A DNA stretch of 64,000 bases from a virus, in IMG/VR virus record IMGVR_UViG_3300045988_114464, positions 1-64,000 of that record; one strand, written 5' to 3'. The notes beneath the pieces are model-generated. The model was not told the DNA's origin and did not search any database. It saw only the letters and a list, made by a program, of their open reading frames with translations. This document shows, in pieces, positions 2,444 to 42,017 of the stretch (position 1 is its first letter; the number at the start of each line of letters is the position of its first letter). The position numbers and the translations under genes were made by a program.

Positions 2444-2872
2444 TTACATATTGTCTACAATTTCATGCATCTTATCTTCTAAATGAATTGCAACGAACGA
2501 TAGTAACGCCCACGCAAAGCAAAAGAATAGATTGCACTGTCCAAAAAAGAAGGTAAATGGTAAATGGCTGTAGTCCCACACACCCATGTGTAAGATATTG
2601 TTCAGCACTACACCAGTCAATCCTTCAAGAACCGTGATAACCACAGTTCCAATTACTACTTGTTGCCATTGCTTGAATTGGCGCTTTCCTTCGTTTAGCA
2701 GTCCTACAATGACGAAACATAAGCCGCCGAGAACTGCCATAGTCCAGTTGGTTGGTTTACCCTTCCAGATGGTTTCGATGGCGAAGTAAAGCATACCTCC
2801 CATCACACCAAACAGCGCATGAACAAGTATTGAATTTAGTTTATGCTTCATGCTCATAATAATATTCCCCAA
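2444..2872 (-). CDS. integral membrane protein
   Basis: Four hydrophobic segments: ALFGVMGGMLYFAI, MAVLGGLCFVIVGLL, VVIGTVVITVLEGLTGVVL, FFCFAWALLSFVAI. Confidence 0.6.
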   Translation of the reverse strand: MGNIIMSMKHKLNSILVHALFGVMGGMLYFAIETIWKGKPTNWTMAVLGGLCFVIVGLLNEGKRQFKQWQQVVIGTVVITVLEGLTGVVLNNILHMGVWDYSHLPFTFFFGQCNLFFCFAWALLSFVAIHLEDKMHEIVDNM

Positions 2873-4738: not shown

Positions 4739-5878
4739 TTAATTATTCAGAATATCAATCGTCCGCGCTTCATACAGCTTTTGCCATGTCTGAAAATCGT
4801 GGTCTACTGCATTTTCCTTGCGCTCAAGCAGACCCAAGCTGTCCCACACAACATCAACTTGTGCAAGACCAGACCATAGTTCAGCTTGCTTCATAATTTT
4901 GTTGTTCCATTGCTCAAACTCTGCATCTGTACCGCCAGTAGCATCATTATCTACAATAAGGACAACATGATTAACGCCCAACTTTAGCAGTTGATTCCTA
5001 CGCTGTAAGCCAAGCTGTGAGCCAAACATAGCGACTGCCGTTGATTGTGAGCCAAGAAAACTATGCAATTTAAGCACAGCTTTCTCACTTTCGGCAATCA
5101 TTACAGTACCAGTACGCTCTATTTCATATTGGTTCTGTGCCAATCCATATAGAACCGCGTTAGTAGGGAACTTATAGATAGTGCCATCCAACAGTTGCAA
5201 AGGTCGATATTTACCATTTATTGCATTTTCACCCCAATACCTACAGCGAATCCCTACTAAATCATAGTTTTCATTAAACACAGGAATGGTCGTTCCCCAT
5301 TCTCGCCCATACCAACCGATACGAAACAAGGCTTGTGTTTCTTCACTTATACCCTCATCCACCCATGCTTGACACGGTGTATTGGGTATAGCGTCAAGAA
5401 TAGATGCGTCATAAGTTGGCAATAAACTACCGCCGTTTCGCACTGTAATGAACTTCTCAAGTCCAGACCAATCCGTGATATTGGGGTTGGCTACACGCTG
5501 AACTTGAGAAGATTCAATACCAGTAACGTCAAGAATGTAATTTACTGCGTCTACGAAAGAACAAGGTTGCTTTAGTAGAGATAATCGTGTTTGAACAAGA
5601 GAAATAATATCATAACTTCTTGATGCAGTATAACCACAATAAACATCAGTGTCTTTATAATAAACCAATTTTCCCGCTGACCCTTTATACGGGTCTACGT
5701 TTTTATCTCCTGTCCACCATTGAATTTCTGTTTTGTTTTCATAATACATTGGAATACCAAGAGATTTAAGAATTTTCTTATGGTTTTCACATGATAAAGA
5801 AGATTTTAATAATTTGGTATTTATCTTTTTATATCCCATATTCTTCAAACATAAAACTTTGTCCAGCAAAATCGCCAA
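4739..5878 (-). CDS. DNA primase (Toprim domain)
   Basis: MIAESEKAVLKL (Toprim Glu) and VVLIVDNDATGG (DxD). The start is uncertain; an alternative ATG at 5839 gives MGYKKINTK. Confidence 0.6.
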   Translation of the reverse strand: MAILLDKVLCLKNMGYKKINTKLLKSSLSCENHKKILKSLGIPMYYENKTEIQWWTGDKNVDPYKGSAGKLVYYKDTDVYCGYTASRSYDIISLVQTRLSLLKQPCSFVDAVNYILDVTGIESSQVQRVANPNITDWSGLEKFITVRNGGSLLPTYDASILDAIPNTPCQAWVDEGISEETQALFRIGWYGREWGTTIPVFNENYDLVGIRCRYWGENAINGKYRPLQLLDGTIYKFPTNAVLYGLAQNQYEIERTGTVMIAESEKAVLKLHSFLGSQSTAVAMFGSQLGLQRRNQLLKLGVNHVVLIVDNDATGGTDAEFEQWNNKIMKQAELWSGLAQVDVVWDSLGLLERKENAVDHDFQTWQKLYEARTIDILNN

Positions 5879-6584
5879 ACAATTCTTTTTCTTTTTTCAA
5901 TCTGGCAATTATAGCTTCTTCTTTTGTCTCATAATAACCCAAATTATAATATACTTTATCATATTCAATAAACGCGCCCCATTTATTGCAATTTTTATGA
6001 AAAAACACACCTATTATTCCCGATTTTCCTTGGGGTACTTTTCGATTCCAAGAATTTTCTTTAGGCAAGCATTTTCTTAAATTTTCTTTTTTGTTATTTT
6101 TTATGTTACCGTCTATGTGGTCAACAACAACTGATTCATTTGTAAGAGGAAAACTTTGTTTTTCAACTCCCATTACAAAACGATGAAAAGCTACTCTTTC
6201 ACCTTTGGTCAAAGAAAATAAATACCCATGACCATCTTCAGTCCAACAATAATCTTTAATTTTATTATAATCTTCATAATCAAAATAAAAAATATTGTTG
6301 CTATTGCTTGCGTATAAAAAACAATTATTTTTATCGGACAAATTATAAATATTATTTTTACGATGGTTTAATATTGTGCTTTCTTTCTGCAAGCATCCGC
6401 ATGATTGTGTAATTCCTTTTAATAAATTTCCAGAACTAATTTTTTTTATGGTGCGCTTTTCACAATCACATTGGCAAAGCCACATAGTCTTTTGTTGTCC
6501 TTTAGGGCTGACATAATTTTCCGCTCGTTCAAGAACTGTTAAACGTCCAAATTGTCGCCCAGTTAAATCCTTAAAATTACCCAT
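5829..6584 (-). CDS. HNH homing endonuclease with AP2-like domain (paralog of 2841..3551)
   Basis: VDHIDGNIKNNKKENLRKCLPKENS (HNH) and GIIGVFFHKNCNKWGAFIEYDKVYYNLGYYETKEEAIIARLKKEKELFG (AP2-like). N-terminus MGNFKDLTGRQFGRLTV parallels MGKVKDLTGMTFNRLKV. Confidence 0.75.
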   Translation of the reverse strand: MGNFKDLTGRQFGRLTVLERAENYVSPKGQQKTMWLCQCDCEKRTIKKISSGNLLKGITQSCGCLQKESTILNHRKNNIYNLSDKNNCFLYASNSNNIFYFDYEDYNKIKDYCWTEDGHGYLFSLTKGERVAFHRFVMGVEKQSFPLTNESVVVDHIDGNIKNNKKENLRKCLPKENSWNRKVPQGKSGIIGVFFHKNCNKWGAFIEYDKVYYNLGYYETKEEAIIARLKKEKELFGDFAGQSFMFEEYGI

Positions 6585-7020: not shown

Positions 7021-8134
7021 TTTCATCCTCCTGTTCTTCTTGCGAAATGCCATAGGTTACAATAAATTCCTTTACTGCCTTGGCAAATTCATCAATCTCG
7101 GCTTGTGTAGTAGGGGTAACACCACCATCAAAACTTAGTCGAATACATTCGCTTGCTTCTTTTTCAGAATAACCAGCGTGCATTAGTACGCGATAACGCT
7201 CCTTACCATCTTCACATGAACTGTGTCCTACGCCAATATAAATCCTCTTACTTGCGAGAAAAACCTGCAATGCGTCAGCGTATACACCGTTGATACGAAG
7301 GCACACAATATCAGTGATGTAATCTTCTGCGCCAGATAGAGCCATTGTACTGTACTTAACGCCTTGCTCAAATAGTGCATTTCTAACAGCGTTATCCCAT
7401 TCTTCTGTACAGCGATGATTATAATGCACTACACTACGCATAAGTGCATAAGCTGTACTTGTTGCACCAGCAACGTCAGGAGTACCGATATAATCAATAC
7501 CATTCAGCCATTCATTAAATCGGTCACTTACCCAAATAAAGCCTTGACCCTTTTCGCCATGAAATTTGTGAGCACTTGCGATAACGCAATCACAGAAATC
7601 TTCAAGATGCTCTGGAATGTCATACTTGCCAATGCTTGCGGTCATATCACAAACAAAAAAGCCGTTAAGTTCTCGCGTCACAGTGCCAATATCAGCAACA
7701 GGAAAAACTTCACCAGTGATATTAGAGACAAGCTGACAAAATGTGATAGGTGTCCTATTAAGACAACAATCTTTTACCACTTTTTTATCGCACAGTTCTT
7801 CAATATTATAAGCAAACACTGGATTGCTGGCAATACATTCGTGCTCATAGGGTGAACTCATCATACGATAATTCTTGTCTGGAACATCGTCATCGTCAAA
7901 GGCTTCAACCCAAGCGTCAGCAATCCTATCAAATAGATACTTAAACATCTTGCTTGCCGTACCGCCAAACACAACCTTGCCAGAACTTACACCAAGGGAA
8001 TGCTTTACGCTATTTTCTGCGTTAAATAGCGCTTCACGGCTCTCAGCACCATAAGGCGTGTTAGCGTTCAACCAAGAACAACTATAAGACGGGTACTTAG
8101 GGAAAGTGGTAGCCGCACTATCAAGATAAATCAT
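7007..8134 (-). CDS. class V aminotransferase / cysteine desulfurase-like PLP enzyme
   Basis: N-terminal IYLDSAATT and SAHKFHGEKG (SxHK PLP-lysine motif); about 375 aa. Confidence 0.6.
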   Translation of the reverse strand: MIYLDSAATTFPKYPSYSCSWLNANTPYGAESREALFNAENSVKHSLGVSSGKVVFGGTASKMFKYLFDRIADAWVEAFDDDDVPDKNYRMMSSPYEHECIASNPVFAYNIEELCDKKVVKDCCLNRTPITFCQLVSNITGEVFPVADIGTVTRELNGFFVCDMTASIGKYDIPEHLEDFCDCVIASAHKFHGEKGQGFIWVSDRFNEWLNGIDYIGTPDVAGATSTAYALMRSVVHYNHRCTEEWDNAVRNALFEQGVKYSTMALSGAEDYITDIVCLRINGVYADALQVFLASKRIYIGVGHSSCEDGKERYRVLMHAGYSEKEASECIRLSFDGGVTPTTQAEIDEFAKAVKEFIVTYGISQEEQEDENEGN

Positions 8135-8706: not shown

Positions 8707-8871
8707 TTACTGCTCCTTTCTCCAATTAAACCAAGTTACATATCCCCAGCCACACGTTGCAATACCCCATAGAGTGCCAAGTAGAATTTGATTTAGTTGA
8801 AACTTCATGATTGTTTCTAACAGTGTGGCAATGAAGCCAGCCAATGATAGAACCCTTAGTGCGATTTTCAT
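8707..8871 (-). CDS. small membrane protein (not in ORF track)
   Basis: AAGGAGG SD followed by MKIALRVLSLAGFIATLLE...GIATCGWGYVTWFNWRKEQ. Confidence 0.45.
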   Translation of the reverse strand: MKIALRVLSLAGFIATLLETIMKFQLNQILLGTLWGIATCGWGYVTWFNWRKEQ

Positions 8872-14574: not shown

Positions 14575-15185
14575 TACTGCACCTTCTTTAGACCCTTTCG
14601 GTCAATAAGAAAATACTTCTTGTTCTGTTCATTAACAATTAGATAGACTTCCTTAGTCTGCTCAAAAACAGCGGAATCAACAACACGAAATGTGCCAGAA
14701 TCATAATTTGACAGTCTCCCGCCCCAATCAAGAAGAATATCATTTGCCAACTTTGTATTACCTAAGTCGCGCTGTGCATTGGCAAACGTAACAATCCAAT
14801 CACGAGCCGTTGGGTAACACCAACCGTGGTCTACTACTGTTACCTTATCAGTAACCAAAATCTCGTCCTTATGCTCAAGGTAATCGTTCAGTACCCAACC
14901 AGCGTCAAACTTATCGTCTGGATGGCACTTGTAACTCTTGCTCTTATCGCGGTTTTTCCCGTAGAAATGCACCGCATCTTCAAAGCCAACAGGAGTGATA
15001 AGGGTTTCATTGCCGTTAATCGTCACCATATAAGTGCCTTCAATTTCATTGGGTGTTTTGTTCTTGTCCATTGTTTTTACCTCCGTTTTGTTGTCTGTGT
15101 TATTTTTGCGTGGATAAACTCTAAGCAACGTATCGTCATACCATGATTCACACCATTCTTCGTAAAGTTTCATCCATTCTTTCAT
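14574..15185 (-). CDS. hypothetical protein
   Basis: 203-aa ORF with start and stop overlapping its neighbours. Confidence 0.5.
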   Translation of the reverse strand: MKEWMKLYEEWCESWYDDTLLRVYPRKNNTDNKTEVKTMDKNKTPNEIEGTYMVTINGNETLITPVGFEDAVHFYGKNRDKSKSYKCHPDDKFDAGWVLNDYLEHKDEILVTDKVTVVDHGWCYPTARDWIVTFANAQRDLGNTKLANDILLDWGGRLSNYDSGTFRVVDSAVFEQTKEVYLIVNEQNKKYFLIDRKGLKKVQ

Positions 15186-16021
15186 TAGAACACCAGTCCC
15201 TTCATAGCTTCGTTAATCTGAGCCTGTTCATGCTTAATGTAACGAGTAGTAGTAGCGATAGAATTATGCCCCAACATTGCACTAATAGTTGCTACACCTA
15301 CGCCATTAGCATTAGCAATAGTAGCCGCTCCCGCTCTAAGCGCATGATTAGTGATTTCATTCCAGAACGGAATGCCAGCACGCTTTGCAGTCAGCTTCAG
15401 CATCTTGTTAAGATTGCTATTATCAAGATGTTCACCACGCTCAGAAGTGAACAAATACTCACCGTCTGCACGCTCAAACTTGATATAGTTATCAATGCTT
15501 TCCTTTGCCTGTTCGTTGACGTAAATCGTGCGTTCCTTCGCACCCTTACCGAGAATAACAATCTGATTATCAATCATGTTATTGTAGTCCTCAAAAGTGA
15601 TGGAAGTCAACTCGCTGAAACGAAGTCCAGTAGAGCAATACAGAGCAATAACTGCAATATCTCTGAACTTTTTGCAGTTGTGAAGCATCTTGCTTACATC
15701 TTCTGCGGAGATATAATGCTTTTCCTTATTCTTAATCTTAGGAGAAGTAAGGTCAAGAGCAGGATTCTCATTGATAACCTTGGCAGAAGTCAGAAACTTG
15801 AAGTAATTCCTAACTGCACTAATCTGGATGTTCATGGACGCGGTAGACAGATTGCTGATAGACGCTTTCCATGCAGTCAAGTCGAGAAAAGAGATTTCTT
15901 CGACAGGCTTATTAACGAATGCCAGCATCTTATCTACATAAAGCAGATAGTTCTTGATGGTGTTTGCAGATTTCTTGTCTGCAACCAAAGAAGCCTTATA
16001 ATACTCGTTAATGTTAGTCAT
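15185..16021 (-). CDS. tyrosine recombinase / integrase (XerC/D-like)
   Basis: LYCSTGLRFSEL (catalytic Arg), HALRAGAATIA (HxxR) and LGHNSIATTTRYI (His...Tyr). Start is the ATG after GGAGAG (MTNINEYY). Confidence 0.8.
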   Translation of the reverse strand: MTNINEYYKASLVADKKSANTIKNYLLYVDKMLAFVNKPVEEISFLDLTAWKASISNLSTASMNIQISAVRNYFKFLTSAKVINENPALDLTSPKIKNKEKHYISAEDVSKMLHNCKKFRDIAVIALYCSTGLRFSELTSITFEDYNNMIDNQIVILGKGAKERTIYVNEQAKESIDNYIKFERADGEYLFTSERGEHLDNSNLNKMLKLTAKRAGIPFWNEITNHALRAGAATIANANGVGVATISAMLGHNSIATTTRYIKHEQAQINEAMKGLVF

Positions 16022-16084
16022 TGAAATCTCTCCTTCGTTTCTTGATGTGCTTATTGTAACACGGCACAAGCCAAAAGTCAATAG

Positions 16085-16199: not shown

Positions 16200-16274
16200 T
16201 GGCACAAGACTTAGGACTTTAACCTAAACGAACAGTTTTGGAGACTGTCATGCTAACAATTACATCAGTCTTGC
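16200..16274 (-). tRNA. tRNA-Trp (CCA)
   Basis: Hand-folded cloverleaf: acceptor GCAAGAC/GTCTTGT, anticodon stem ACAGT/ACTGT, loop CTCCAAA, T arm TTAGG-TTAAAGT-CCTAA, encoded CCA. Confidence 0.75.
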
Positions 16275-16277
16275 GTA

Positions 16278-16352
16278 TGGAGCGCTATGGCGTAATCGAA
16301 ACGCCATCTTCAGTTTGGAAAACTGAGGTTCTTACCATTAAACTAATAGCGC
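16278..16352 (-). tRNA. tRNA-Gly (UCC)
   Basis: Acceptor GCGCTAT/ATAGCGC, anticodon stem TCAGT/ACTGA, loop TTTCCAA, T arm GGCGT-TTCGATT-ACGCC, encoded CCA. Confidence 0.8.
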
Positions 16353-16468
16353 AAATCGCCCCGCGACCAAAAGGTACGTCATGCGCGCTTGACTTGTTTT
16401 CCACTGGGAATCGCAGTACAGTCATGGGCTAAACCGCAATAAGCGTGAACTTAACAAACGGGGAACAC

Positions 16469-16544
16469 TGGCAGGGATGGTGTGATTCGGACACACGAAT
16501 GTCGGCTTCAAAGACCGATGCCTTGACCGCTTGGCTACACCCCT
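16469..16544 (-). tRNA. tRNA-Gln (UUG)
   Basis: Acceptor AGGGGTG/CATCCCT, anticodon stem TCGGT/GCCGA, loop CTTTGAA, T arm GTGTG-TCCGAAT-CACAC, encoded CCA. Confidence 0.75.
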
Positions 16545-16701
16545 ATATTTCTCCTACGCTGACGAGACGCAGGAGAGAAATTAAATTGTATGCCGACACG
16601 TTTGAGCGTGTCTATTAAATTGTTTGTCTGCCGTACCAGACGGTGTGTGTGAGTGGAGTTTTTGCTCACGGACAATAAAATTTACCTTGTACGGAAGGCA
16701 T

Positions 16702-16777
16702 TGGTCTACCATCGCAGGCTCGAACTGCGGACTTCTTGATTAAAAGTCAAGTGCTCTACCAACTGAGCTAATGGTAG
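16702..16777 (-). tRNA. tRNA-Lys (UUU)
   Basis: Acceptor CTACCAT/ATGGTAG, D arm GCTC-AGTTGGTA-GAGC, anticodon stem CTTGA/TCAAG, loop CTTTTAA, T arm CGCAG-TTCGAGC-CTGCG, encoded CCA. Confidence 0.85.
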
Positions 16778-16945
16778 ATTTGATTGGGGCATATGCCCCA
16801 TCACTTATCGCAGATTGTAACGGTCTACACCGCGCATATTCTTCTGCATCTCAAGGTTTGCTTCATACAGACCACGGAAGAAATGCTTGATATTGCTCTT
16901 AACGCCCATTGGTTTCACTTCCTTTCTGATTACTTTAGTATTATA

Positions 16946-17575
16946 TCACATAACAACTAAGTTGTCAAGTGCTTTTTTAACTTTATTTTTCATTTCTTCT
17001 CGCTCTTTCTTAGAGTCATATCTCATGCGACAATAAGGGCGAGTGCCTTCTCTGTAATGTTTCTGCAAAATTCGTATTTGCTTATTTACCATTTCTTTAG
17101 AAACATCTAACTTATCAGCCACTTCTTGACACGTTTTACATTCTGTTAGCTTTGCGTATATGACTTTAAGCATAGCAGTCGAAGCATACTCGATAAACCA
17201 ATCAGCCCAATCTTTACCAGCAACATATTCTTCATTCTTTGCGCCACTGTCAATAACAGCTTCAAGCGGTACATCTTCATTATAGACGGTTTTAACTTCA
17301 GTGTTCAATGAAATAACACGACTATCATTGCGCTTCTTTGCTAACTGAGTGCGCTTTGCCTTTTTTACTTCATTGTGCATACAGTAATAAGCAAATGTAC
17401 TAAAGCGGTTACTGCCATCATAAGCCATACCAGCCTTGCACAAACCAATAGCACAAATGTCATACCATGTGTTGAAGTCAAGTTTATACTTTGTTAAGAA
17501 GCCGTAGATTAAATCGTGATTATCTTCGACTAATTTCTTCTGCTCAGTATTTAATTTGATATTTGGCTTGCTCAT
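16946..17575 (-). CDS. sigma-70 family sigma factor
   Basis: Region 2-like DLIYGFL...DICAIGLCKAGMAYDGSNRFSTFAYYCMHNEVKK and a region 4-like HTH TCQEVADKLDVSKEMVNKQIRILQK. Confidence 0.7.
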   Translation of the reverse strand: MSKPNIKLNTEQKKLVEDNHDLIYGFLTKYKLDFNTWYDICAIGLCKAGMAYDGSNRFSTFAYYCMHNEVKKAKRTQLAKKRNDSRVISLNTEVKTVYNEDVPLEAVIDSGAKNEEYVAGKDWADWFIEYASTAMLKVIYAKLTECKTCQEVADKLDVSKEMVNKQIRILQKHYREGTRPYCRMRYDSKKEREEMKNKVKKALDNLVVM

Positions 17576-17774
17576 AACAGTTGTTTCCTTTAGTTTGAAA
17601 TAATGGAGCGAATGACGGGTACTGCCCCCGCGTCCTCAGTTTGGGAAACTGAAATTCTACTATTGAACTACATCCGCATATGATAACAGGGAATGAGTTA
17701 GAAAGAAGGTATGTCAAAAGAAGGAGAAAAAATCTCATTCCCTGCTATTTATTTATATTTGTTATGCTTAGAAG

Positions 17775-19263: not shown

Positions 19264-19959
19264 TTAATCTTCTAACCCATAAACATTAAACCACGTTTGA
19301 TGTGATTTTCTTGTTTTGGTTAAGTCTTGTTTTCTTCTTCTAATAAACTCAACAACCATTTCTTTTGAATATTTTCTTAAAAGCATATTGATTGTATTTG
19401 TTCCGAGATTCAAAACATCAGCCCATTCTCGACCTGTATGTTCCTCTTCGTCTACTTTTAAGATTTTGGTTGTTGATTTGTATTTAGAATTATCGCTACC
19501 TGTAATCCATCGACAATTCTCAGGACAATAATCTTTAGATTCGTCAATACGGTCAATCGTTAAACCTTTTTGGTAGCCATTTGCCAAAGCCCATTGTTCA
19601 AACGAAAGTCTGTTTTCTAACCATTCTTCACAAATTTTAATACCCTTTTTGCCATACCATCGGTATGCTCTATCTTCTGGATTGTAGCATCTGGTAACAA
19701 TACCGTTAAAAATATGTTGCAGTCTTTTATTACTCCAACGATAATCACCTATATAATATTTTTTATTGTTTATTGTCACACAATGCTTGCATTGTCGAGG
19801 AATTTTAATATGCCTATATTGCATATCAGTTTCCCAGCCACATTCAACACATCTAACATGATACATTGTATGTCCATCATTTGATTTGAAATCACATTTA
19901 TACATGATTTCAAAAATACTTTGTACTGTTCCAACACAGTTCTTTTCTTGTTCTGTCAT
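19264..19959 (-). CDS. HNH homing endonuclease (free-standing)
   Basis: DRIDESKDYCPENCRWITGSDNSKY (HNH_3-like), N-terminal Cys clusters CVECGW...CKHC, and a C-terminal helix-turn-helix-like REWADVLNLGTNTINMLLRK. Confidence 0.6.
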   Translation of the reverse strand: MTEQEKNCVGTVQSIFEIMYKCDFKSNDGHTMYHVRCVECGWETDMQYRHIKIPRQCKHCVTINNKKYYIGDYRWSNKRLQHIFNGIVTRCYNPEDRAYRWYGKKGIKICEEWLENRLSFEQWALANGYQKGLTIDRIDESKDYCPENCRWITGSDNSKYKSTTKILKVDEEEHTGREWADVLNLGTNTINMLLRKYSKEMVVEFIRRRKQDLTKTRKSHQTWFNVYGLED

Positions 19960-20057
19960 AATTTCCGTCCTTAAATTATATTTTATAATCAAGGCTCAAT
20001 AAAGGCGGTATTGTTATCTCAACAAATAGCTAATTTGTTGCTACCCTTGATTATAAT

Positions 20058-27739: not shown

Positions 27740-28460
27740 GAGAACGTATACTATTTTAGTATACTTTACATCCGACCGCTCAAGACTTCCAATTCCTGTA
27801 AATAACTTGTCAATAGCAATCTTATACAAAACGACCTAATCAATCTTGTGTACTTTACCTATTGACAGAAAATAAACGATAACTCATATCATTAAGCAAT
27901 AGGATAGGTTATAATCGGCTCAGAATCGCCCAGAATCGCTTTTCAATGCCAAACGTAAAACTATAAGCCGACTTTCTAAAAATCGACGCTGACGCGATTT
28001 GTCAAAACCAGCGCTTTAATTTTGTATACTTTGCCTATTGATTGTGCAAATTCCGTGCTATTTAGTAAACATATACAAAAGCAGTCTTATATCTTTGTTA
28101 CTATTGCACAAGCGACTGAAGATATAGAACATCATGAATGATAATAAACATTTGAATATATGAATGTGCAATATGATATTCGATATTCAATATCATACAC
28201 GATATATAATAACTATACAAAGGCAATGCATACGATATGGATACACTTTATCAAACTAAAATCTACTATTGAAGTATACAATTCTAATAATGAATACTGT
28301 TTTAGTATACAATAATCATATACTAAATGAGTATATGTTTACTGATATAGTGCGCTTTACTATGATAACACTACACTTAACTAAAGTATACTATAGTTGT
28401 ACACATTGACGCGCTGATGCTATAGTATACTATACGAGTATATGATAAATGTATACAAGA
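27740..28460. repeat. cluster of AGTATAC(T) iteron-like motifs in an ORF-free region
   Basis: At least 10 copies or near-copies, for example GTATACTattttAGTATAC at 27746-27765, others near 28273, 28304, 28385, 28424 and 28451, and two more near 29240-29260. Confidence 0.65.
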
Positions 28461-28470
28461 TAAGTAGACA

Positions 28471-28655
28471 TTGAAGGGAGGAAGGGAGCGAGTGGATATA
28501 TATACAATATGATGAATAAAGAGAAGGTGATGAGATGATGATATATGATGATGATTGAAGGTGGTTTATGATGTTATATGATATAGAGATGAATACTATA
28601 TAGGAAGGGAGGAAGGGAGGGAGAAAGGGGAAAGTGAAGGGAAAAGTGCGGGATT
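28471..28655. other. C-depleted purine-rich block
   Basis: About 185 nt containing only 4 C by hand count (GAAGGGAGGAAGGGAG...GGAAGGGAGGAAGGGAGGGAGAAAGGGGAAAG). Confidence 0.8.
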
Positions 28656-28730
28656 TATACCAGAAAAGAAAAAAATCGTAATATACACACGCGAGAAGTT
28701 ACAAAAACAAGGCTTTTCCAGCAGTTGTCA

Positions 28731-28795
28731 TATTCCTTGTATTCCGATAGGTTTAGTAGGAATTGCTTTATATTCCAGGTTTCCTATAGGAATAT
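28731..28795. promoter_or_regulatory. TATTCC/GGAATA site cluster including the perfect palindrome TTCCTATAGGAA
   Basis: TATTCCTTGTATTCCGATAGG...TAGGAATTG...TATTCCAGGTTTCCTATAGGAATATAGG. The palindrome is at 28781-28792. Confidence 0.6.
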
Positions 28796-28920
28796 AGGGG
28801 GAGGGTATTAGATTTACCATATAATCACAATTAGTCGGTGCTGATTGGTAACATTTTCCATTCTGTAGAGGGGGTAAATTCTGGATGAAGAACCATTTTT
28901 TGGAACTTTTTTCGGCATTA

Positions 28921-29110
28921 GTCCTCACCATCACACCACCCCTAATCACTCCCATTTCCACCATATTTTACCACCCCTTTCCCTCCTCTTTCCCCTCCAT
29001 TCATCCCTCTTCCTTCTCCATCCCCACACCCATCCACCAGCCGTCCCTTTCCGTTCCAATCGGTCATTTTCGCCATTTTCAACCCTTCAAATTTCCCCTT
29101 AAAATTCCGT
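28921..29110. other. G-depleted pyrimidine-rich block
   Basis: About 190 nt with 8 G by hand count, and only 1 G in the first approximately 110 nt (CACCATCACACCACCCCTAATCACTCCC...CCCTCCTCTTTCCCCTCC). Confidence 0.8.
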
Positions 29111-29367
29111 CACATTTTTATAGGGAGTTTTCACCTATATTCACACATTTTTATAGGGACTTCAAAAAAGTTAATAAAATGTTTACAATTTGTTCATATT
29201 GTTGTAATAAGTTTGTGATAGCGTTATAATGTGCGTCAAAGTATACCAAAATAGTATATATTCAGATTGCACTAAGCTGTACTAATTTACGTTGTTTAGA
29301 CAATAAAAATATACCTAAAATTATTCGTGGTTTTTCATGAGTTTTAAGGAGTAATAGAACCGTTAAG

Positions 29368-29491
29368 AATTTTTGGACAAAAAATGTATATATAACAAGG
29401 GCTATGATATATATACAAAAAATGTCCAAAAATTAAAATGGCTTTAGCCAGTATAGGTAATACGACATATTTTGTCTTATGTCCAAAAATT
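29368..29491 (+). promoter_or_regulatory. three copies of the 12-mer TGTCCAAAAATT (one inverted)
   Basis: AATTTTTGGACA at 29368-29379 (inverted); ATGTCCAAAAATT at 29422-29434 and 29479-29491. Confidence 0.55.
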
Positions 29492-30606
29492 TAGAAGGGG
29501 GCTTCTATGTGAGAGAACCAAAAAAGAATCCAATAGAAAGTATGAAAGGAGAAGAATTAGAAAAGTTTATTAGTAACTTGAGAAAGATACAAGGTCAGCC
29601 GTTATCTTATTCTAAACTATGTGAAGCATTGAATTTGCCGAAGAAGTCCAGTAATTCTAAAACAGCGCAATTAAATGACCTAAAGGTTATCTGTAATTTT
29701 GATATTAGTTCCAGCCCAACTCGATATACTATTACAGAAGTATTTAGCTATTTGCAACCGTGTATGGATTTCTTAAATTCTAATGTCATGCGGATTCAGT
29801 TGTCTATGGAATCAGCGCTCTTTCAAGCGTTCTTAAATAACAATGGCAAGAGCCTGTATCTATCTAACATGGAGTTGCTAAAGACCGTTGGAGCAGTTAA
29901 TGAAAATTTCGCTTACTGTATCGACTATAAGGCGCTAAACAAAATTGATAAGAACCTGCTTTATATGTCGGATATGGTTATGCCTGTTTATCGTTTGCTA
30001 TCAGTTTGGGTTAAAAGAAAGATTGAAAAGATGGTTATTCGTGGGACGTTCCATACAGGATTTGGCTTTAGGCTATATCGTTATCATAGAGGGCAGTATG
30101 GTATGTATATAACCAAGCATGATGTGCCGAGAGAAACCGAACTAAATAAAGAATGTATGGCGCTGTTCAATCAAGCCGTTAATCATTGTTTGCCAAGAAG
30201 TTGGGGAGGGGAATGGGTTTCAATCAAGACTTGGGAAAACTTTGAGAAGTATCTTGATGAAATTACACAAAAATACTTTGAAGGCAAAGGCGATTATTAT
30301 AAACTTCGGCGCATCACTGTCTATGAGCCGTCTAAAGATGAATGGATTTTACAACAGCTAAAAAATGTGAATGAGCAACTCAATGCTTTACAAGAAGTCA
30401 ATAGCAAGTCGAAATCAAAGATTCTTACAGGTAAACATATCGGTATTACTTATGATAAGCAAGGTGACGAAGTAATTGATAGCGACTTTACTATTATGCA
30501 ACGCGATAAATTTGTAGATTATAATATTGACCTGCATCCACCTGTTATTTTCAAAGAAGTGCTGAAGCAGATTAACTATTTAGAGTCGCTAAAAGAAAAG
30601 AAATAA
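29479..30606 (+). CDS. hypothetical protein, the only plus-strand gene inside the early block (DNA-binding/initiator candidate)
   Basis: 375-aa ORF. A better start is the GTG at 29509, 7 nt after AAGGGGG (MREPKKNP). There is an HTH-like stretch LSYSKLCEALNLPKKS. Function is not recognised. Confidence 0.55.
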   Translation: MSKNLEGGFYVREPKKNPIESMKGEELEKFISNLRKIQGQPLSYSKLCEALNLPKKSSNSKTAQLNDLKVICNFDISSSPTRYTITEVFSYLQPCMDFLNSNVMRIQLSMESALFQAFLNNNGKSLYLSNMELLKTVGAVNENFAYCIDYKALNKIDKNLLYMSDMVMPVYRLLSVWVKRKIEKMVIRGTFHTGFGFRLYRYHRGQYGMYITKHDVPRETELNKECMALFNQAVNHCLPRSWGGEWVSIKTWENFEKYLDEITQKYFEGKGDYYKLRRITVYEPSKDEWILQQLKNVNEQLNALQEVNSKSKSKILTGKHIGITYDKQGDEVIDSDFTIMQRDKFVDYNIDLHPPVIFKEVLKQINYLESLKEKK

Positions 30607-32770: not shown

Positions 32771-34096
32771 CTATACTCGTTTAGGATGTTCTTTGTATTT
32801 GGGGTATAAATCATAATTATAAGCCGTGTCATATTGCCAAGTAAATCCACCGCAGTGTTTATATTTACCTGTACAGCATTTTTGGATATTTTGTGCCAGT
32901 ATGCCTGTTTCAAACGAAGCTGAAGAAGCGTCAAGATAGTGAGTATTTGTTTCGACACAATATACTGGTGTACTACCTTTTATTGGTTTGTTTATAATAG
33001 CTTGAATTTCTTCAAGTTCTAATTGAGAGTATTCGTCATAAAACATCCATTTTAAGTATTGTCCTTCGGCAAATCCAGCATATTCGCTTTTGTGTTCGGC
33101 ACAATTTCTAATAGAATCGCTGAATTTGATATTAGCGTAATCTCTTGCTTCTACCTGTGTTTTATAAATTTTTCCTGTGTTTAAGCATACAATAGGTGGG
33201 TTGACATTAGTCCATCGTTGGACAATAATTTCTGTGATAGTTTCATTTGTAAGTTCTTCATAGTCGTTAATATAAATAAAAATTTGCCCGTAAGTAGTTT
33301 TTTTATCGCCACGGCAACTGCCAGCAACAAGACTATAGGGAATATCGTAATATTCGCTGGCTTTTGAAGGATTGTCAAAAATTTTACCATCAATCAAATT
33401 CATGACAGGGTTAAATTTAAGGCTTTGTAGATAATTCGCGTGTTGCTTTTTTCTATCTTCAAAAAGTTGTTGATAATCTTCAAGAGACTTAGATTTATCA
33501 TATTTTTCCCAAAACAAAGGAGCGCCTTCAATATTTTTGCCCGCAGTCCATTGTCGGCTATTTGTTTCAAATATATGAGATATATTTCGTTCATGGCAAC
33601 CTGTGCATCCTTGTTTGGTCTTTTCTTCTCCTGCAATGGTTAAAGACGGAAAAATCTCTAAGGTGTTTAAGCAAATAACAGGAATGTTTACAGATAGATT
33701 TGCTCTATCGTGATGTTTTCCATAAAAACTATTGTTCTTCCCCTTTCTTGTTTCAGAAAAAAGTTGTTTGGTTTCTTCGCTATGATGCCTACCAAACATA
33801 GGCGCACTACCGCCGATTGAAAGATTATATCCAATCTTAGGGTCACGAGCATGATATTTGTCAATTAGTTCAATTTCTTTTTGAAAGGCTTCTTCTTGAG
33901 TTAGGCCTTCAATCAAAATTTCTTTTATGAAATTATTTTCGCCATATTTTTGAATAGCATGATGCAAACGAGGGTTGCCTTTATATCCATACCCACTTTG
34001 CCATCTTTCTTTTAGAGTTCGTGAAGTGATGCCTATATATATTAAACCGTTGTGTTTATCGGTATATTTGTATACCTTCCAAGTGTTGTTGCACAT
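32771..34096 (-). CDS. GIY-YIG homing endonuclease with NUMOD-like repeats
   Basis: VYKYTDKHNGLIYIGITSRTLKERWQSGYGY...N (GIY-YIG core), then repeated PMFGRHHSEETK / GKNNSFYGKHH modules. Confidence 0.75.
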   Translation of the reverse strand: MCNNTWKVYKYTDKHNGLIYIGITSRTLKERWQSGYGYKGNPRLHHAIQKYGENNFIKEILIEGLTQEEAFQKEIELIDKYHARDPKIGYNLSIGGSAPMFGRHHSEETKQLFSETRKGKNNSFYGKHHDRANLSVNIPVICLNTLEIFPSLTIAGEEKTKQGCTGCHERNISHIFETNSRQWTAGKNIEGAPLFWEKYDKSKSLEDYQQLFEDRKKQHANYLQSLKFNPVMNLIDGKIFDNPSKASEYYDIPYSLVAGSCRGDKKTTYGQIFIYINDYEELTNETITEIIVQRWTNVNPPIVCLNTGKIYKTQVEARDYANIKFSDSIRNCAEHKSEYAGFAEGQYLKWMFYDEYSQLELEEIQAIINKPIKGSTPVYCVETNTHYLDASSASFETGILAQNIQKCCTGKYKHCGGFTWQYDTAYNYDLYPKYKEHPKRV

Positions 34097-34870: not shown

Positions 34871-35050
34871 ATGGCTTGGACAGAAATGAGTTATAACAGA
34901 AATTTTTTTGATGACACACTTGACGAAGATACAATTTGTCATAAGAAGTCATTAAGTGAATCATATACTTTGCGCTTACAGAAACGACAAGAGATGGAAA
35001 GTAAGCGTCAAGAGCGACTAAAGAAGAAGTACAAGGGTGAGCAACAATGA
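34871..35050 (+). CDS. hypothetical small protein
   Basis: GAGGTGAG SD followed by MAWTEMSYNRNFF.... The stop overlaps the next start. Confidence 0.5.
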   Translation: MAWTEMSYNRNFFDDTLDEDTICHKKSLSESYTLRLQKRQEMESKRQERLKKKYKGEQQ

Positions 35051-37671
35051 GCCTAACAAATCAAATTCATGCTTATTCGGTGGGTACGGACGCATTTTAT
35101 GATGAATCTGAGCAATTTATTCATAAGCGTTTATTGAAACTGTATAAGCTACGAGCAGTTAATCGCAAGTATAAAGAAAAAGAAACTGAATATTCATGGG
35201 GTACAGCGTGTATCAATCGAGTAATCAAGAAAGAAAAAGAACAACTTGAACAATTACTCAATAAGCGTCTGGAAAGCACTGAACCGCGCACAATGAATCC
35301 AGAAGTTTTGAAGGATAAAAATGTTATTTCATTGTTTGTTAGTTCGCTTACTCGTGCTATTGGAATTGAACACAATCAGTTGTCTGAAGATATTTTTGTT
35401 ATCAGCGTTTATTTCTTTCAAGTATTTCATAACATTGTTCGTGATGGGTTTATATATAATGGAGAAAAATATATTTTTCTTACGGCTTCGGCAGGACAAA
35501 TACGCACAAAGAAAGCGGTTTTTATAAAAGAATCGACTTTTAATCGTATTAAGATGCGAATGATGTGCGGACTAACCGTTGAAGAAATCAACGAAGCTGG
35601 TGGCACAAATGAGAATAAGTTTCTTGCTTATCTTGCTCTTGGTAATTCTGCTACAGATGTTTGGGAAGATTTTGATATTGATAAGTCGATTGTAGTCGAT
35701 GACTTTGAAACAGAAATTCAAACTGAAGTTGACCACATTTCTGCTGATTATAGCATTAAGCGTGAAGTTACTGGTACAGTAATTCCTCACATGGATGGTT
35801 GTGGAATAATGTTGGATAAACCTACGAGAATGGTTCGCGCTCCGTGGATTAAAGGCTTGCTTGTGCATTTTCCTTTTGACAAGTTTATTCAAGAAAAATG
35901 TGACGGCAAAGCAATAGTAACTGATATTTACGGTCAAGACCATGATATTCTTGCTGAAGATATTCGATATATTTTCACAAAAAGCCAGTTTAAGATGTAT
36001 AAGTTTTATCAATCATGGGAAGATTACAAGCAAAAGTTTAAGCAATATCGTTGTGAAGCGTGCTATTGTAATATGGAAGAACAAGATATTCCTCGCGCCA
36101 GAATCAATTATCAGATGCTTCAAACGCTTACTGATATGACCGATGAAGAAATTGCTACATTGACCAAAGAGACAGTTGAAGAAATTGCAGCTATTGGTAA
36201 TGATTTTCAAACTTCTATGAAATTGATTGGCGCAACTTCATATAACAAAAATCCAAGTTATGTGCAAGAAGCGTTAATGATTTATCCAGAACTTATGCGT
36301 GACCAGTATAGCCGTGATATTTTGAAAGAAACTAAAAAGAGTTTGATTAAGCAAGCAAAATCAGGGCGGTTAAGAGTGAATGGCAAATATCTCTTTTTAT
36401 CTCCTGACCTATATGCGTTTTGTGAATGGCTGTTTCTTAATGAAGTGAACCCAAAAGGATTGCTTCAAGACGGCGAAGTGTTTACTACGCAGTTTAGTAA
36501 TGGTGATGAAGTTGCTTGTTTGAGAAGTCCGCATTTGTATCGTGAATGGGCGATTCGCAAAAATGTAAAGAATGAAGATTTGAACAAGTGGTTTGGGGAA
36601 ACGAAATGTGTGTATACCAGTTGTCATGATTTGATTTCAAGGATTCTTCAATTTGATGTGGACGGAGACAAGAGTTTGGTCATTAAAGACAAATTGTTGA
36701 CTTCTATAGCAAAACGTAATATGGCAGGAATTTGCACACTTTCTTATGATTTGAAGAAAGCAAAGGTTGGCGCTATCTCTCCTGACAATATTTACCATAG
36801 TATGACCAAGGCTTATACAGGTGGTAATATTGGTGTAATTAGTAATCAGATTACAAAAGTATGGAATAGTCCTAATTTAACAAAAGATTATGATAGCGCT
36901 CTAAAGACAGTAAAGTTGTTTACTTATATCAATAATCAAGTAATCGACTATGCTAAGACGCTGTGGAAAGTTGACCCACCTTTTGAAGTTGAAGAAATGA
37001 TGAAACGATATACCAAAGCGAAACCACCATATTTTTTCATTTATGCTAAAGACAAGAAGAAATCACAAGTAGAACCGCCAAACAATTCTACCATGAATCG
37101 TATTTGTCAGTCAATCCCCAATAATCGAGTTAAGTTTGCGAAAATGTGTGATAATTTTGATTATCGTATGTTGATGAATCTTGATTATGGTTTTAGTATT
37201 AGTGAAGATAATCAGATAATTGAAAGATATAACTATTGGAATCGACACCAATATTTGTTTAATACTGAAGCTGAAAATGCAAAGCAAGAAGATATGTATA
37301 TGTTTCAACAAATTCGTAAACATATTCTTGCAGAAACTAACGAAGATATTAACGTGGTAGTTAATACGTTGGTCATGTATCTTTACACTATTAAAACAAA
37401 CAACATGAAGAAAACATTATGGGCTTCTTTTGGTGATATACTTGTTGAAAATCTGAAAAAGAATACGGCAAGTCTTGGTAAGGTTTGTGAAGAATGCGGA
37501 GATAGATTTATTTCATTGCAAAGTAATCATCGGTTCTGTTCTGATGAATGTTGTAAGAAAGCAAGAGCTAAAAGATTAAAGCAAAAGCGCAAGTTTTGTA
37601 CGCTCGTTCAGAGCGAAAAAGTTGCAAATATCGAAGATATTTCTCAAAATAAACAAAATAGTGTAGATTAA
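35047..37671 (+). CDS. YonO-like single-subunit two-barrel RNA polymerase (candidate)
   Basis: 874 aa. ILQFDVDGDK (about 36652-36669) fits the DbDGD metal-binding motif of two-barrel RNAPs and RdRPs. ACLRSPHLYREWA (about 36523-36540) upstream of it resembles the R-N/S-P-x-x-H motif of that family. C-terminal zinc ribbon CEECG...CSDEC. Confidence 0.5.
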   Translation: MSLTNQIHAYSVGTDAFYDESEQFIHKRLLKLYKLRAVNRKYKEKETEYSWGTACINRVIKKEKEQLEQLLNKRLESTEPRTMNPEVLKDKNVISLFVSSLTRAIGIEHNQLSEDIFVISVYFFQVFHNIVRDGFIYNGEKYIFLTASAGQIRTKKAVFIKESTFNRIKMRMMCGLTVEEINEAGGTNENKFLAYLALGNSATDVWEDFDIDKSIVVDDFETEIQTEVDHISADYSIKREVTGTVIPHMDGCGIMLDKPTRMVRAPWIKGLLVHFPFDKFIQEKCDGKAIVTDIYGQDHDILAEDIRYIFTKSQFKMYKFYQSWEDYKQKFKQYRCEACYCNMEEQDIPRARINYQMLQTLTDMTDEEIATLTKETVEEIAAIGNDFQTSMKLIGATSYNKNPSYVQEALMIYPELMRDQYSRDILKETKKSLIKQAKSGRLRVNGKYLFLSPDLYAFCEWLFLNEVNPKGLLQDGEVFTTQFSNGDEVACLRSPHLYREWAIRKNVKNEDLNKWFGETKCVYTSCHDLISRILQFDVDGDKSLVIKDKLLTSIAKRNMAGICTLSYDLKKAKVGAISPDNIYHSMTKAYTGGNIGVISNQITKVWNSPNLTKDYDSALKTVKLFTYINNQVIDYAKTLWKVDPPFEVEEMMKRYTKAKPPYFFIYAKDKKKSQVEPPNNSTMNRICQSIPNNRVKFAKMCDNFDYRMLMNLDYGFSISEDNQIIERYNYWNRHQYLFNTEAENAKQEDMYMFQQIRKHILAETNEDINVVVNTLVMYLYTIKTNNMKKTLWASFGDILVENLKKNTASLGKVCEECGDRFISLQSNHRFCSDECCKKARAKRLKQKRKFCTLVQSEKVANIEDISQNKQNSVD

Positions 37672-40151: not shown

Positions 40152-42017
40152 ATGGGAAATAGCTTACCAGCTATGGGCGGTATTCGCCGTAAGTTTATGG
40201 CAAAAGAACTCCGAGGAACAGTTAGTGGTGCTGACTTGCTTGAGAAAGAGCAAGAAGAAAAAGTAATTGAATGGGACACATTATTTAGACGTAATTGGGA
40301 TATATACGCAGAATTTTATCTTGGTATTGGTCTAAAGCCATATCAGCGTGAAGCGTTGCATGAGATTGGCACATCCGATGTGTTCTTTTGGCGTGCTGGG
40401 CGTGGTGGTGCAAAGTCATTTATTACTGCTCTTGCCGCAATTTGTAAACTGATGCTTTATCCAAACTGTTGGATTGTTGTTACTGCTTCTACTATTGACC
40501 AAGCAAATAAAATTGTAGAAGATAAGATATTGAGCGAATTGGTTAAAAAATTATCACCATATTTGTTGTATCTTTATGAAAAGCAGTGGCTTGTTATTAC
40601 TAAACCACAAGACGGCTATAAGATTGAAAATACGCTGAACAATAGTGTATTGCGTGTTCTTGCTCCTGTTGAGTCCAGCCGTGGTGTGCGTTCAAATTTC
40701 ACAATTTATGACGAAGTGGCTATTATGAAGAAGGCGAGTATCGACCAAATCTTTGATGGTATGCTTTATCCGCGTCAACCAGTATTTTTGAATAACAATC
40801 CAGAATATGCAAACAACCCACGTTGGCTTGAAGAATCAAAGGCTATTTATCTAACTTCTTCCAAATATAAATATCAATGGTGGTATGGACTTTGGAAGGA
40901 ATGTGTTAAAGGTTGGTTTGATGATAAAAAGACAGTGTTCAATGTTTTTGCTTCAGACTTTTTCGATAATATTGATAATGGTCTAAAGACATGGGGCGAC
41001 TATCGCCGTGCTAAAAAGACTACGGAAGAATTTTCTTTCCGTATGGAGTATCTTAATGAAGCAATAGGTGAAAATGAACACGCCTATTTTACCATTCAGC
41101 AATTCAAAGAAAACCAAACGCTTGAAAAAGCATTTGTTCCTCCAACAAATATCGAAGTTATAACTCAAACCGCGCCTTACAATCCACCGAAGGGCGAAGA
41201 TGAAGTACGCTTGATTCTTGTTGACTACGCATTTGCTAATACAGTAAAGGGTGCTGGTCGAAAAGCAAACGACAATACGATTATTATTTGTATGTCTTTG
41301 CATTGGAAAGAGAATCATTTTGAGCGTCATGTTGATTATATTCAAGGTTGGGAGGCTTCTGATTCCACTGGTGCAGTAAATCGTATTCGTGAATTATATT
41401 GGGACTATCAAACCGACTATATTGTTGATGACCAACAATCTGGCGGTGAAGTAATTTATAATTTATTTACTCAACCTTGGGAACATCCAGAAAGAGGACG
41501 TGCATGGAATAGTCATGGTTTTACTATCAGTGATAAAACTGAATATGTTTCAGCAGTGGCTATTGATAGTAAAATTGAAGATTATAAAATGCGTACAGTT
41601 GACCCGCACGCTATCCCTTGTATTATTCCTGTTAAGGGTTCTTCAACACTTAACGATATTGTGTGGAAAGAAATGCGCCGTCAGCTTGAGTATGGTAATG
41701 TTAAGTTCTTGATTGACACTAACGATTTCCAAGAAACTTTAGTTGACAATGGCGAATATTTCAAAATGACTTCTGAACAGTATGGCGTTGCTTGTGCTCC
41801 ATACAATCATACAGAAGAATTGATAAAAGAAGCAGTAAACCTTAAAGCTGAGTTTAAGCAAGATAAGGTGCGTCTTTCTGAGCCGTTAAACGGTACAAAA
41901 GACCGTATTGTTGCTTTAGCCTATGGTAATTATATTGCTACTTTAATTGAAAACAGATGGAATAAAGATATAGCACAAGATGAATTTGATATTGATTCAA
42001 TTCAGCTTGTGTGGTGA
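40152..42017 (+). CDS. terL: terminase large subunit
   Basis: Walker A WRAGRGGAKS and Walker B FTIYDEVA, with a C-terminal nuclease-sized half; 621 aa. Confidence 0.8.
   Translation: MGNSLPAMGGIRRKFMAKELRGTVSGADLLEKEQEEKVIEWDTLFRRNWDIYAEFYLGIGLKPYQREALHEIGTSDVFFWRAGRGGAKSFITALAAICKLMLYPNCWIVVTASTIDQANKIVEDKILSELVKKLSPYLLYLYEKQWLVITKPQDGYKIENTLNNSVLRVLAPVESSRGVRSNFTIYDEVAIMKKASIDQIFDGMLYPRQPVFLNNNPEYANNPRWLEESKAIYLTSSKYKYQWWYGLWKECVKGWFDDKKTVFNVFASDFFDNIDNGLKTWGDYRRAKKTTEEFSFRMEYLNEAIGENEHAYFTIQQFKENQTLEKAFVPPTNIEVITQTAPYNPPKGEDEVRLILVDYAFANTVKGAGRKANDNTIIICMSLHWKENHFERHVDYIQGWEASDSTGAVNRIRELYWDYQTDYIVDDQQSGGEVIYNLFTQPWEHPERGRAWNSHGFTISDKTEYVSAVAIDSKIEDYKMRTVDPHAIPCIIPVKGSSTLNDIVWKEMRRQLEYGNVKFLIDTNDFQETLVDNGEYFKMTSEQYGVACAPYNHTEELIKEAVNLKAEFKQDKVRLSEPLNGTKDRIVALAYGNYIATLIENRWNKDIAQDEFDIDSIQLVW

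Follow-up and report, generated by a model that had tools for sequence, protein, structure and literature searches.

A Base-Exclusion Element as the Probable Genome-End Region of a Distant SPβ-like Phage

Introduction

What is the role of a gene-free stretch of phage DNA in which one strand almost loses cytosine, returns to ordinary composition, and then almost loses guanine? The question is raised by positions 28,436 to 29,110 of the virus record IMGVR_UViG_3300045988_114464, of which positions 1 to 64,000 were analysed (the window). The element comprises a C-depleted (C-less) block, a centre of about 273 bp, and a G-depleted (G-less) block. Judging from its gene content, the window belongs to an SPβ-like phage that is only distantly related to SPβ itself. 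SPβ has been a model phage for 50 years, and a review still lists its packaging site and its replication as unresolved questions (PMC8270828). The comparison of the element with cultured relatives points with moderate confidence to a genome-end region, that is, the concatemer-junction or packaging-initiation region, of such a phage.

Strand Composition of the Element

The C-less block at 28471-28655 contains 71 A, 67 G, 43 T, and 4 C in 185 nt, and the G-less block at 28921-29110 contains 87 C, 60 T, 35 A, and 8 G in 190 nt. A preliminary description made from the sequence alone reported a low-C block followed by a low-G block, and its counts of 4 C and 8 G are exact. The two blocks are the sole sites in the 64-kb window with 10 or fewer C or 10 or fewer G per 185 nt. 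The runner-up minima outside them are 12 C and 11 G per 185 nt, while shuffling (n = 200) gives minima of 11 C and 11 G with means of 17.3 and 17.9. The binomial P is 1.8e-12 for the C-less block and 2.0e-9 for the G-less block. On the plus strand, the C-less block extends over 28436-28648, with 5 C in 213 nt and a G+A-rich composition in the window, and the first C after it is at position 28649. The centre (28649-28921) has ordinary composition. The G-less, C-rich block (28922-29110, plus strand) follows directly after a TAG and carries the conserved CACACCACC at 28932-28940. The whole region lies inside a 1.6-kb gap without credible genes (27830-29478), and the skew of the blocks runs opposite to that of the adjoining arms.

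Both blocks show a phasing of AA/TT at 11.25 bp with a pooled z of 5.8-8.2. Size-matched controls 1.5-6 kb away give z values of 0.1-2.4 and codon periodicity only. This suggests curved DNA that is wrapped by a protein, plausibly the small terminase. No discrete repeated binding site was found in the blocks alongside the phasing, and a search for 6-8-mers common to both blocks in inverted orientation, or common among lineages, returned nothing beyond AT-rich words.

The centre contains TATTCC at 28731, 28740, and 28771, GGAATA at 28789, and the perfect palindrome TTCCTATAGGAA at 28781, where the preliminary description had also placed such sites. In the close relatives L001 and L002, this half-site cluster (28731-28794, with the palindrome at 28781-28792) keeps its arms, its central bases are altered, and the perfect palindrome is lost. 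The cluster is missing from other lineages and probably represents lineage-specific protein-binding sites.

Conservation and the Common Core

In an alignment with L001 and L002, which are 93% and 82% identical to the window in this region, the C-less block is the most variable part of the element, with whole segments swapped and the composition alone kept. The stretch from about 28640 to about 29160 is strongly conserved in all three, and 28800-29000 is almost invariant. The G-less block is also almost invariant, with indels of 1-2 nt, and the centre is conserved in L008 as well. Positions 467-2717 of L008 correspond to 28436-30606 of the window; the element is about 93% identical there, but the next downstream protein is only 36% identical, which marks the element as a conserved module at a mosaic junction. 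The recombination boundary between L008 and the window, to the right of the element, is sharp.

More distant relatives were collected through the YonO-type single-chain RNA polymerase, which the window encodes at 35047-37671 (Pfam RdRP PF05183, E 2.7e-13; phrog_8308, E 2e-250). With YonO as the anchor, 78 IMG/VR loci were fetched, with YonO identities of 41-99%. When YonO is placed on the plus strand, a C-less block followed by a G-less block within 1.5 kb occurs in about 25 loci, and the reverse order is never found at comparable strength among the YonO-anchored loci. The preliminary description had proposed a search for the same mirrored skew in related genomes, and the skew is thus present there, with its order fixed relative to YonO. 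This conservation identifies it as a functional cis element. The centre of the recurring layout measures about 150-420 bp. In the relatives, the C-less block measures 126-598 nt and the G-less block 113-484 nt, often longer than in the window, and the distance from the end of the C-less block to the TAG is 179-418 nt with a median of 223 (17 relatives). The C-less block of most lineages is T-rich and G/T-rich with 16-25% G, and is not purine-rich. The conserved trait is therefore the exclusion of a single base from one strand, and neither a purine/pyrimidine bias nor G-richness.

Every lineage has GGGG(G), mostly followed by TA, then 43-44 nt of unrelated sequence and a TAG at the 3′ end of the centre. 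The G-less block begins at the base next to this TAG, and a (C)CACA(C)ACC motif (CCACACACC) lies about 10 nt further on in all lineages. In the window, this core occupies 28870-28921 on the plus strand, with GGGGG at 28870-28874, 44 variable nucleotides, and TAG at 28919-28921. A search of both strands of 1.66 Mb with the pattern GGGG-N42-45-TAG followed by a G-poor 80 nt gave 40 matches, one per locus, all on the YonO strand. Of the 55 loci whose sequence reaches 8 kb or more upstream of YonO, 31 have the strict core, which lies 4.1-8.9 kb away from the YonO gene; relaxed versions occur in several further loci. The combination of a fixed spacing and a free spacer sequence points to distance measurement along the DNA by a protein. 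The core is predicted to be the recognition and measuring element for the right-hand cut proposed below.

Other explanations of the core were tried. A leader peptide ending at the TAG was rejected, as its reading frame is not conserved. RNAalifold over 20 diverse cores predicts 0 pairs and no shared structure. Rfam searches of the window, of L010, and of the yonR-yonP side of SPβ return only tRNAs above the gathering threshold, and nothing credible at E ≤ 10.

Two further observations concern the layout in particular lineages. A second GGGGGTA(N)TTTACAT-like motif or the palindrome ATACCCCCTGGGGGTAT occurs within or after the element in L067 (3581 and 4315) and L012 (about 1470). The centres of one lineage (L063, L067, L069, L074, and L078) are 650-1040 nt long.

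Cultured Relatives with Mapped DNA Ends

phiCD211: A PhageTerm analysis of this Clostridioides phage reports a direct terminal repeat (DTR) of the T7 type with a length of 378 bp (Garneau et al. 2017, PMC5557969), and the record LN681537.2 has this 378-bp repeat at both ends. The end of the repeat reads ...GGGGGTATTTTATGG...GTGTGTAGT and lies 1 nt past the conserved TAG. Its terminus, ...GTAGGGGGTATTTTATGGAAAGTGGCTTGTTTGTCAGTAGGATTTTGTGTGTAGT, is composed of GGGGG, 43 nt, TAG, and one additional base, with the TAG at 375-377 of 378. The left end of the genome continues after the repeat with CCTTTCATTTCCAC, as in the window and SPβ. A short C-poor stretch precedes the start of the repeat; on the flanks, the last 70 nt ahead of the repeat contain 5 C and the first 100 nt beyond it contain 9 G.

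PMBT24 and CB473P3: For PMBT24, PhageTerm found a significant peak on one strand only, and the authors began their genome map at the packaging (pac) site (Sprotte et al. 2024, PMC11035940). The record ends in a C-less block of 374 nt (13 C) that closes with ...GTGGATAGTGGGTGAATGTATCT, and it starts with the first bases of the centre, CATATTTTGAGGGTTCGCC..., which align with the start of the centre of the Enterocloster phage CB473P3. Position 1 of PMBT24 is 2 nt after the first C that ends its C-less block. The core follows at about 251-303, in a centre of about 302 nt, and a G-less block of about 500 nt comes next. CB473P3 has the same parts in an unannotated 2-kb gap, namely a 488-nt C-less block (23 C), a centre of about 294 nt with the core, and a G-less block of about 409 nt. 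The records of CB473P3 and of Thomasclavelia phage TR-TP1 begin in other AT-rich gaps. Small "hypothetical protein" coding sequences are annotated in the centre, the G-less block, and the gap of PMBT24 (OQ326496.2, L087, 158-998) and of L090 (1262-2597). They are probably spurious, because G-free sequence has few stop codons.

SPβ: Restriction mapping put a potential pac site between or around yonR and yonP (PMC8270828). Read in the direction of yonO, the yonR-yonP gap has a short C-poor stretch and then ...ATATATGGGGGTATATTTACATC...CCCATAG, directly followed by CACTTCCATTTCCACACCC. The TAG is followed by a G-poor tract of about 290 nt and then by the yonP promoter. For SPβ, phiCD211, PMBT24, and the window, the cores can be aligned in register without a gap.

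A role of the element as the YonO promoter was rejected. The published YonO start site is in another gap of SPβ, between yonN and yonK (PMC5467207), which shows no skew. In the window, no further copy of the GGGGGTA word occurs close to the late genes. This 1.7-kb yonN-yonK gap (NC_001884, L083) contains unannotated RNA, with minus-strand Rfam matches at 7410-7475 and 8720-8829. The matches are DUF3800-VIII at 47.5 bits (gathering threshold 40.2) and the skipping-rope RNA at 29.6 bits, which is below threshold.

Predicted Genome Ends

The mapped ends of PMBT24 and phiCD211 show that the boundaries of the centre correspond to the left terminus in PMBT24 and to the right terminus in phiCD211. 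The right boundary is homologous to the edge of the phiCD211 repeat, one base after the TAG of the common core, and the left edge follows a C-poor stretch. By this homology, the window phage would be cut at the same positions. The left cut is predicted where the C-less block ends, near 28,649-28,652, which puts the left boundary of the terminal repeat, or the left genome terminus or packaging start, at 28645-28655 (about ± 10 nt). The right cut is predicted at 28,921/28,922, with the TAG 43-44 bp downstream of GGGGG(TA). The centre of about 273 bp (28649-28921) would then be the segment between two terminase cuts, and its length falls inside the 179-418 nt of the relatives. Along a concatemer junction, the order would be the sub-terminal region of the right end (C-less block), the terminal repeat or inter-cut segment (centre), and the sub-terminal region of the left end (G-less block). 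In linear virion DNA, each block would thus adjoin a repeat on its inner side, the G-less block at the left end and the C-less block at the right end. A short, T7-type direct terminal repeat is the most likely identity of the centre; failing that, it would be the DNA that comes after a single pac cut, with headful cuts made later.

With cuts at the predicted positions, each genome end would have a C-free strand with its 3′ terminus there and a G-free strand with its 5′ terminus there. The preferred guess for the strand bias is that resection of the ends from 5′ to 3′ leaves nothing but C-free, unstructured single strands beside the repeat. A packaging protein, for example the small terminase, may bind the phased blocks or have them wrapped around it. 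A bolder proposal, which is put forward tentatively and with low confidence, is that the base-exclusion blocks are a selected "phage telomere" design. In this design, 5′-to-3′ resection by the exonuclease/annealase system of the phage would uncover only C-free strands next to the terminal repeat, since these are the 3′-ending strands at the two termini. They could neither fold through G:C pairs nor mis-anneal with each other, and they would offer no cytosine to deaminases of single-stranded DNA or to C-dependent nucleases. The result would be a clean annealing of the repeats for circularisation or concatemer formation. The blocks could equally be polar tracks for the packaging motor, and in both cases GGGGG-N44-TAG would be the measure-and-cut signal of an SPβ-type terminase.

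Several points weigh against a genome-end role. The ends of the window phage are placed by homology only. The relatives disagree on the packaging mode, as PMBT24 is classed as pac from one peak and phiCD211 as DTR, and no direction is given for the PMBT24 peak relative to the final record. Composition alone defines the left boundary, where no sequence motif is conserved. The skew is weak in phiCD211 and SPβ, and several lineages that bear the core have no clear C-less block. Five independent IMG/VR contigs (L007, L009, L011, L014, and L081) start 100-130 nt upstream of the strong sigma-70-type promoter of the operon of small open reading frames (ORFs) and YonO. These starts could mark another hot spot of DNA ends, or the assemblies may have broken there at a mosaic junction. 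A Logan contig of the window lineage starts 26 nt left of the TAG, off the predicted ends. Contig ends in the window lineage are uninformative as evidence of physical ends. The L007 contig begins with a Nextera adapter.

Comparison with Known Systems

phiCD211 and PMBT24 are the closest comparisons. The phiCD211 DTR resembles the window element in its core, GGGGGTA-N43-TAG followed by TCCTTTCATTTCCAC, in the end of the repeat 1 nt after the TAG, and in the gene order of an HU-like gene, exonuclease, and terminase. In contrast, phiCD211 is distant (its large terminase is 25% identical) and its flanking skew is weak. The pac terminus of PMBT24 has the full mirrored layout, its terminus is on the boundary between the C-less block and the centre, and its large terminase is 42% identical; it differs in being classed as headful pac.

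The concatemer junction of T7 and T3, with its repeat, the CJ pause site ATCTGTT, and the SRL array, likewise has a short repeat bounded by precise cuts. The T7 terminal repeat is duplicated during maturation. In T7 (NC_001604), the 160-bp repeat and ATCTGTT are followed at 161-340 by a G-poor, C/A-rich array with 19 G and 55 C in 180 nt. Unlike the window element, T7 has no C-poor block before the right repeat, and its array can be recognised as a 7-mer repeat. The two share no sequence homology, and the terminase belongs to a different clade. The T7 terminal repeat also contains CCCCCATAGGGGGTA.

The pac sites of SPP1 and P1 have two flanking binding arms around a central cut region, in bent or wrapped DNA. 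The window element is similar in its flanking arms around a centre, and its phased A/T tracts suggest bent or wrapped DNA. However, the arms of SPP1 and P1 are defined repeats, whereas those of the window element are base-exclusion blocks. The SPP1 and P1 sites are in or next to the small-terminase gene, the usual place of headful pac sites; the window element lies about 11 kb upstream of the large-terminase gene (40152-42017).

Eukaryotic telomeres offer an analogy only. If the cuts fall as predicted, the strand that runs 5′ to 3′ toward each end contains G and is C-free, as in telomeres, and the blocks of L010 resemble TG1-3 / C1-3A. Unlike a telomere, the element has no terminal tandem repeats or telomerase, and a unique repeat would be at the very end.

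The 378-bp repeat of phiCD211 and the pac terminus of PMBT24 are already published. In the literature searched, there appears to be no description of the phiCD211 and PMBT24 termini and the SPβ pac interval as one homologous element, nor of the GGGGG-N43/44-TAG signal, the base-exclusion blocks, and their helical phasing. The words repeat, skew, and G-rich are absent from the text of the PMBT24 paper (PMC11035940). To this extent, the statement of the preliminary description that no phage element with this layout has been described holds. The element provides concrete candidate genome ends, open to test at single-base resolution, for the whole SPβ-like, YonO-encoding group, including abundant phages of the human gut. 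It also provides a candidate signal, which combines the conserved GGGGG-N43/44-TAG with a left boundary defined by composition. The sub-terminal blocks, of up to about 600 bp, have one base almost excluded from one strand and a helical A/T phasing. Should the strand bias protect the ends, help them to anneal, or guide the motor, a new design principle of phage genome ends would be at work. With the motif, complete genomes of the group can be oriented and their ends predicted from sequence alone, and spurious small ORFs annotated inside the blocks can be flagged.

Alternative Functions of the Element

The preliminary description proposed a bidirectional origin or a divergent control hub. In the origin version, inward G-rich transcripts would form R-loops that prime leading strands in both directions. 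The mirrored composition of the blocks is in line with this, as is the position of the element at the divergence of gene orientation, with the replication and early genes of the minus strand to the left and plus-strand genes to the right. An AT-rich repeat array (28140-28470) adjoins the element, and such arrays fit operators as well as the unwinding regions of origins. However, there is no DnaA box with one mismatch or fewer in 27.8-29.5 kb, and the genes next to the element match no initiator family. In most lineages, T is dominant in the left block and G is only 16-25%, so the propensity for R-loops is not conserved. The left block is even replaced between phages that are 93% identical. Also against an origin are the opposite skew of the adjacent arms and the mapped DNA ends of relatives, which fall on both boundaries. 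Such an origin is unlikely; the role is not supported and would be a second function at most. The hub part of the proposal fits loosely, in that promoter-like and operator-like repeats are present in the 1.6-kb gap. A transcription device is rather unlikely as well, though it is compatible with packaging. It would be a two-way Rho-dependent insulator, or the core and the G-less tract would act as a non-coding RNA or an RNA-polymerase pause. C is strongly above G over 118-480 nt on each outward strand, and both outward strands of the window have the composition of Rho utilisation (rut) sites, i.e., at least about 80 nt that are C-rich and G-poor, with 87 C and 8 G on the right and 67 C and 4 G on the complement of the left block; this is a likeness of composition only. 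Several lineages have a TATAAT-like box at a distance of 31-44 nt upstream from the G-run. A sigma-70-type promoter is present after the G-less block, and insulation would make sense with a promoter in this place. T7 also has a G-poor array directly after its repeat, and RNA-polymerase pausing at the T7 concatemer junction is reported to aid concatemer maturation. Against the device stand the lack of an Rfam family, the lack of a shared structure over the core, and promoter-like matches that are no more numerous than in shuffles. It also leaves the mapped DNA ends on the boundaries unexplained.

Two further alternatives are weaker. The blocks could be converging polar guide arrays that steer a translocase, either the terminase motor or the host FtsK/SpoIIIE, to a site of cleavage or recombination. 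KOPS or SRS sequences point to dif, and the element has a KOPS/dif-like geometry, with G-rich strands running 5′ to 3′ toward the centre from both sides and a strictly conserved polarity. The GAGAAAGGGG of the window block resembles GAGAAGGG, the SRS of B. subtilis. The lack of a shared 6-8-mer beyond AT-rich words, in both blocks or among lineages, and the low G of the left block in many lineages make this very improbable. The last alternative, a hairpin or cruciform formed by pairing of the blocks in RNA or DNA, or else a protein-coding gene in the G-less block, is hardly credible. The blocks had been described as partly complementary, and the best inverted repeat (I2) does cover 38 nt at 74%. 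The duplex energy is large, at −101.2 kcal/mol for the best inter-block duplex, but shuffled blocks give −100.4 ± 6.8 (z = −0.12), and z ranges from −1.6 to +0.7 in eight relatives. The complementarity is thus an effect of composition only. L001 has a different sequence in place of the left arm of I2, and the right side shows no change that would compensate for it. An ORF spans 28885-29229, but it is frame-shifted or stopped in L001, L002, and L008, and together with the 1-2-nt indels of the G-less block this rules it out. The absence of a credible ORF, as first described, is therefore borne out, and both the block hairpin and the G-less ORF were rejected.

DnaA-box arrays had been hinted at by TGTGGATAA in one lineage and were rejected as well, with no enrichment across lineages and none in the window element. 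The window contains 32 DnaA-box-like 9-mers (TTATCCACA, one mismatch or fewer) versus 18.9 ± 4.0 in shuffles. No shuffle reached 32, and none of the 32 is inside the element.

Flanking Features and Gene Context

Direct and inverted repeats of the GTATAC type make up the AT-rich array to the left of the element (28140-28470, on neither strand in particular), which also has matches to sigma-70-like promoters. The array contains the repeat families D1, D2, D5, and D6 and the inverted repeats I1, I5, I9-I12, I16, and I17. Promoter-like sites are located at 28398-28433, and the number of such sites is not above that in shuffles. The array is probably an operator/promoter region for divergent early genes.

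The G-less block is followed on the plus strand by two direct copies of CACATTTTTATAGGGA(G/C)TT, 33 nt apart (29111-29162, family D7), which are kept in L001 and expanded in L002. A sigma-70-type promoter, TTGTAA-17-TATAAT, and then a GTATAC-type site come next (29202-29262, plus strand); the latter is the inverted partner of 28387-28412 (I4). A promoter in the same place after the G-less block is found in L010 (TTGACA-17-TAATAT with TG) and in SPβ (TAGACA-17-TATAAT, before yonP).

The first gene to the right of the element (29479-30606, plus strand) encodes a 375-aa protein with no assigned function. This protein has no Pfam or PHROG match and no terminase or initiator signature, and its AlphaFold2 model (pLDDT 81.8) has no significant match in the PDB. 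Just 11 homologues were found, and homologues are encoded directly downstream of the element in L015, L018, L073, and others. The direct and inverted repeats TTTTTGGACA / TGTCCAAAAA (I3, I21, and D8) at 29368-29434 and 29477-29491, in the leader and at the start codon of this gene, look like operator sites.

The right side of the window has an exonuclease, the large terminase, and then a portal protein, in the same order as in PMBT24 and phiCD211. The large terminase is 42% identical to those of the Enterocloster phages, PMBT24 included, about 29% identical to YonF of SPβ, and 25% identical to that of phiCD211. No small terminase was identified. The left arm encodes a primase, a DnaB-type helicase, a Sak4-like annealase, a tyrosine-recombinase-like protein, and a sigma-like protein. 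The minus-strand run of replication and early genes is to the left of the element; the plus-strand genes to the right begin with 29479-30606. Megablast and blastn against GenBank phages gave no useful nucleotide match. Among IMG/VR contigs, two of about 112-114 kb are closely related to the window. The assembly of the IMG/VR relative 116681 is circular with an end overlap of about 139 nt, which is not informative on DNA ends. A host lookup from the contigs gave mostly bins of metagenome-assembled genomes from the gut, with doubtful assignment.

The minus strand carries a tRNA cluster (Trp, Gly, Gln, and Lys) at 16200-17677, and a fifth Rfam tRNA match at 17607-17677 (48.8 bits) is not called by ARAGORN. 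There are at least four homing-endonuclease genes (HNH and GIY-YIG-like) at 2841-3551, 5829-6584, 19264-19992, and 32771-34096, one of which sits in a minus-strand cluster between the element and YonO. The sigma-factor-like protein is encoded at 16946-17575 and the tyrosine-recombinase-like protein at 15185-16081, both on the minus strand. The SPβ repressor MrpR has a recombinase fold (PMC10516654), and the tyrosine-recombinase-like protein could be its counterpart.

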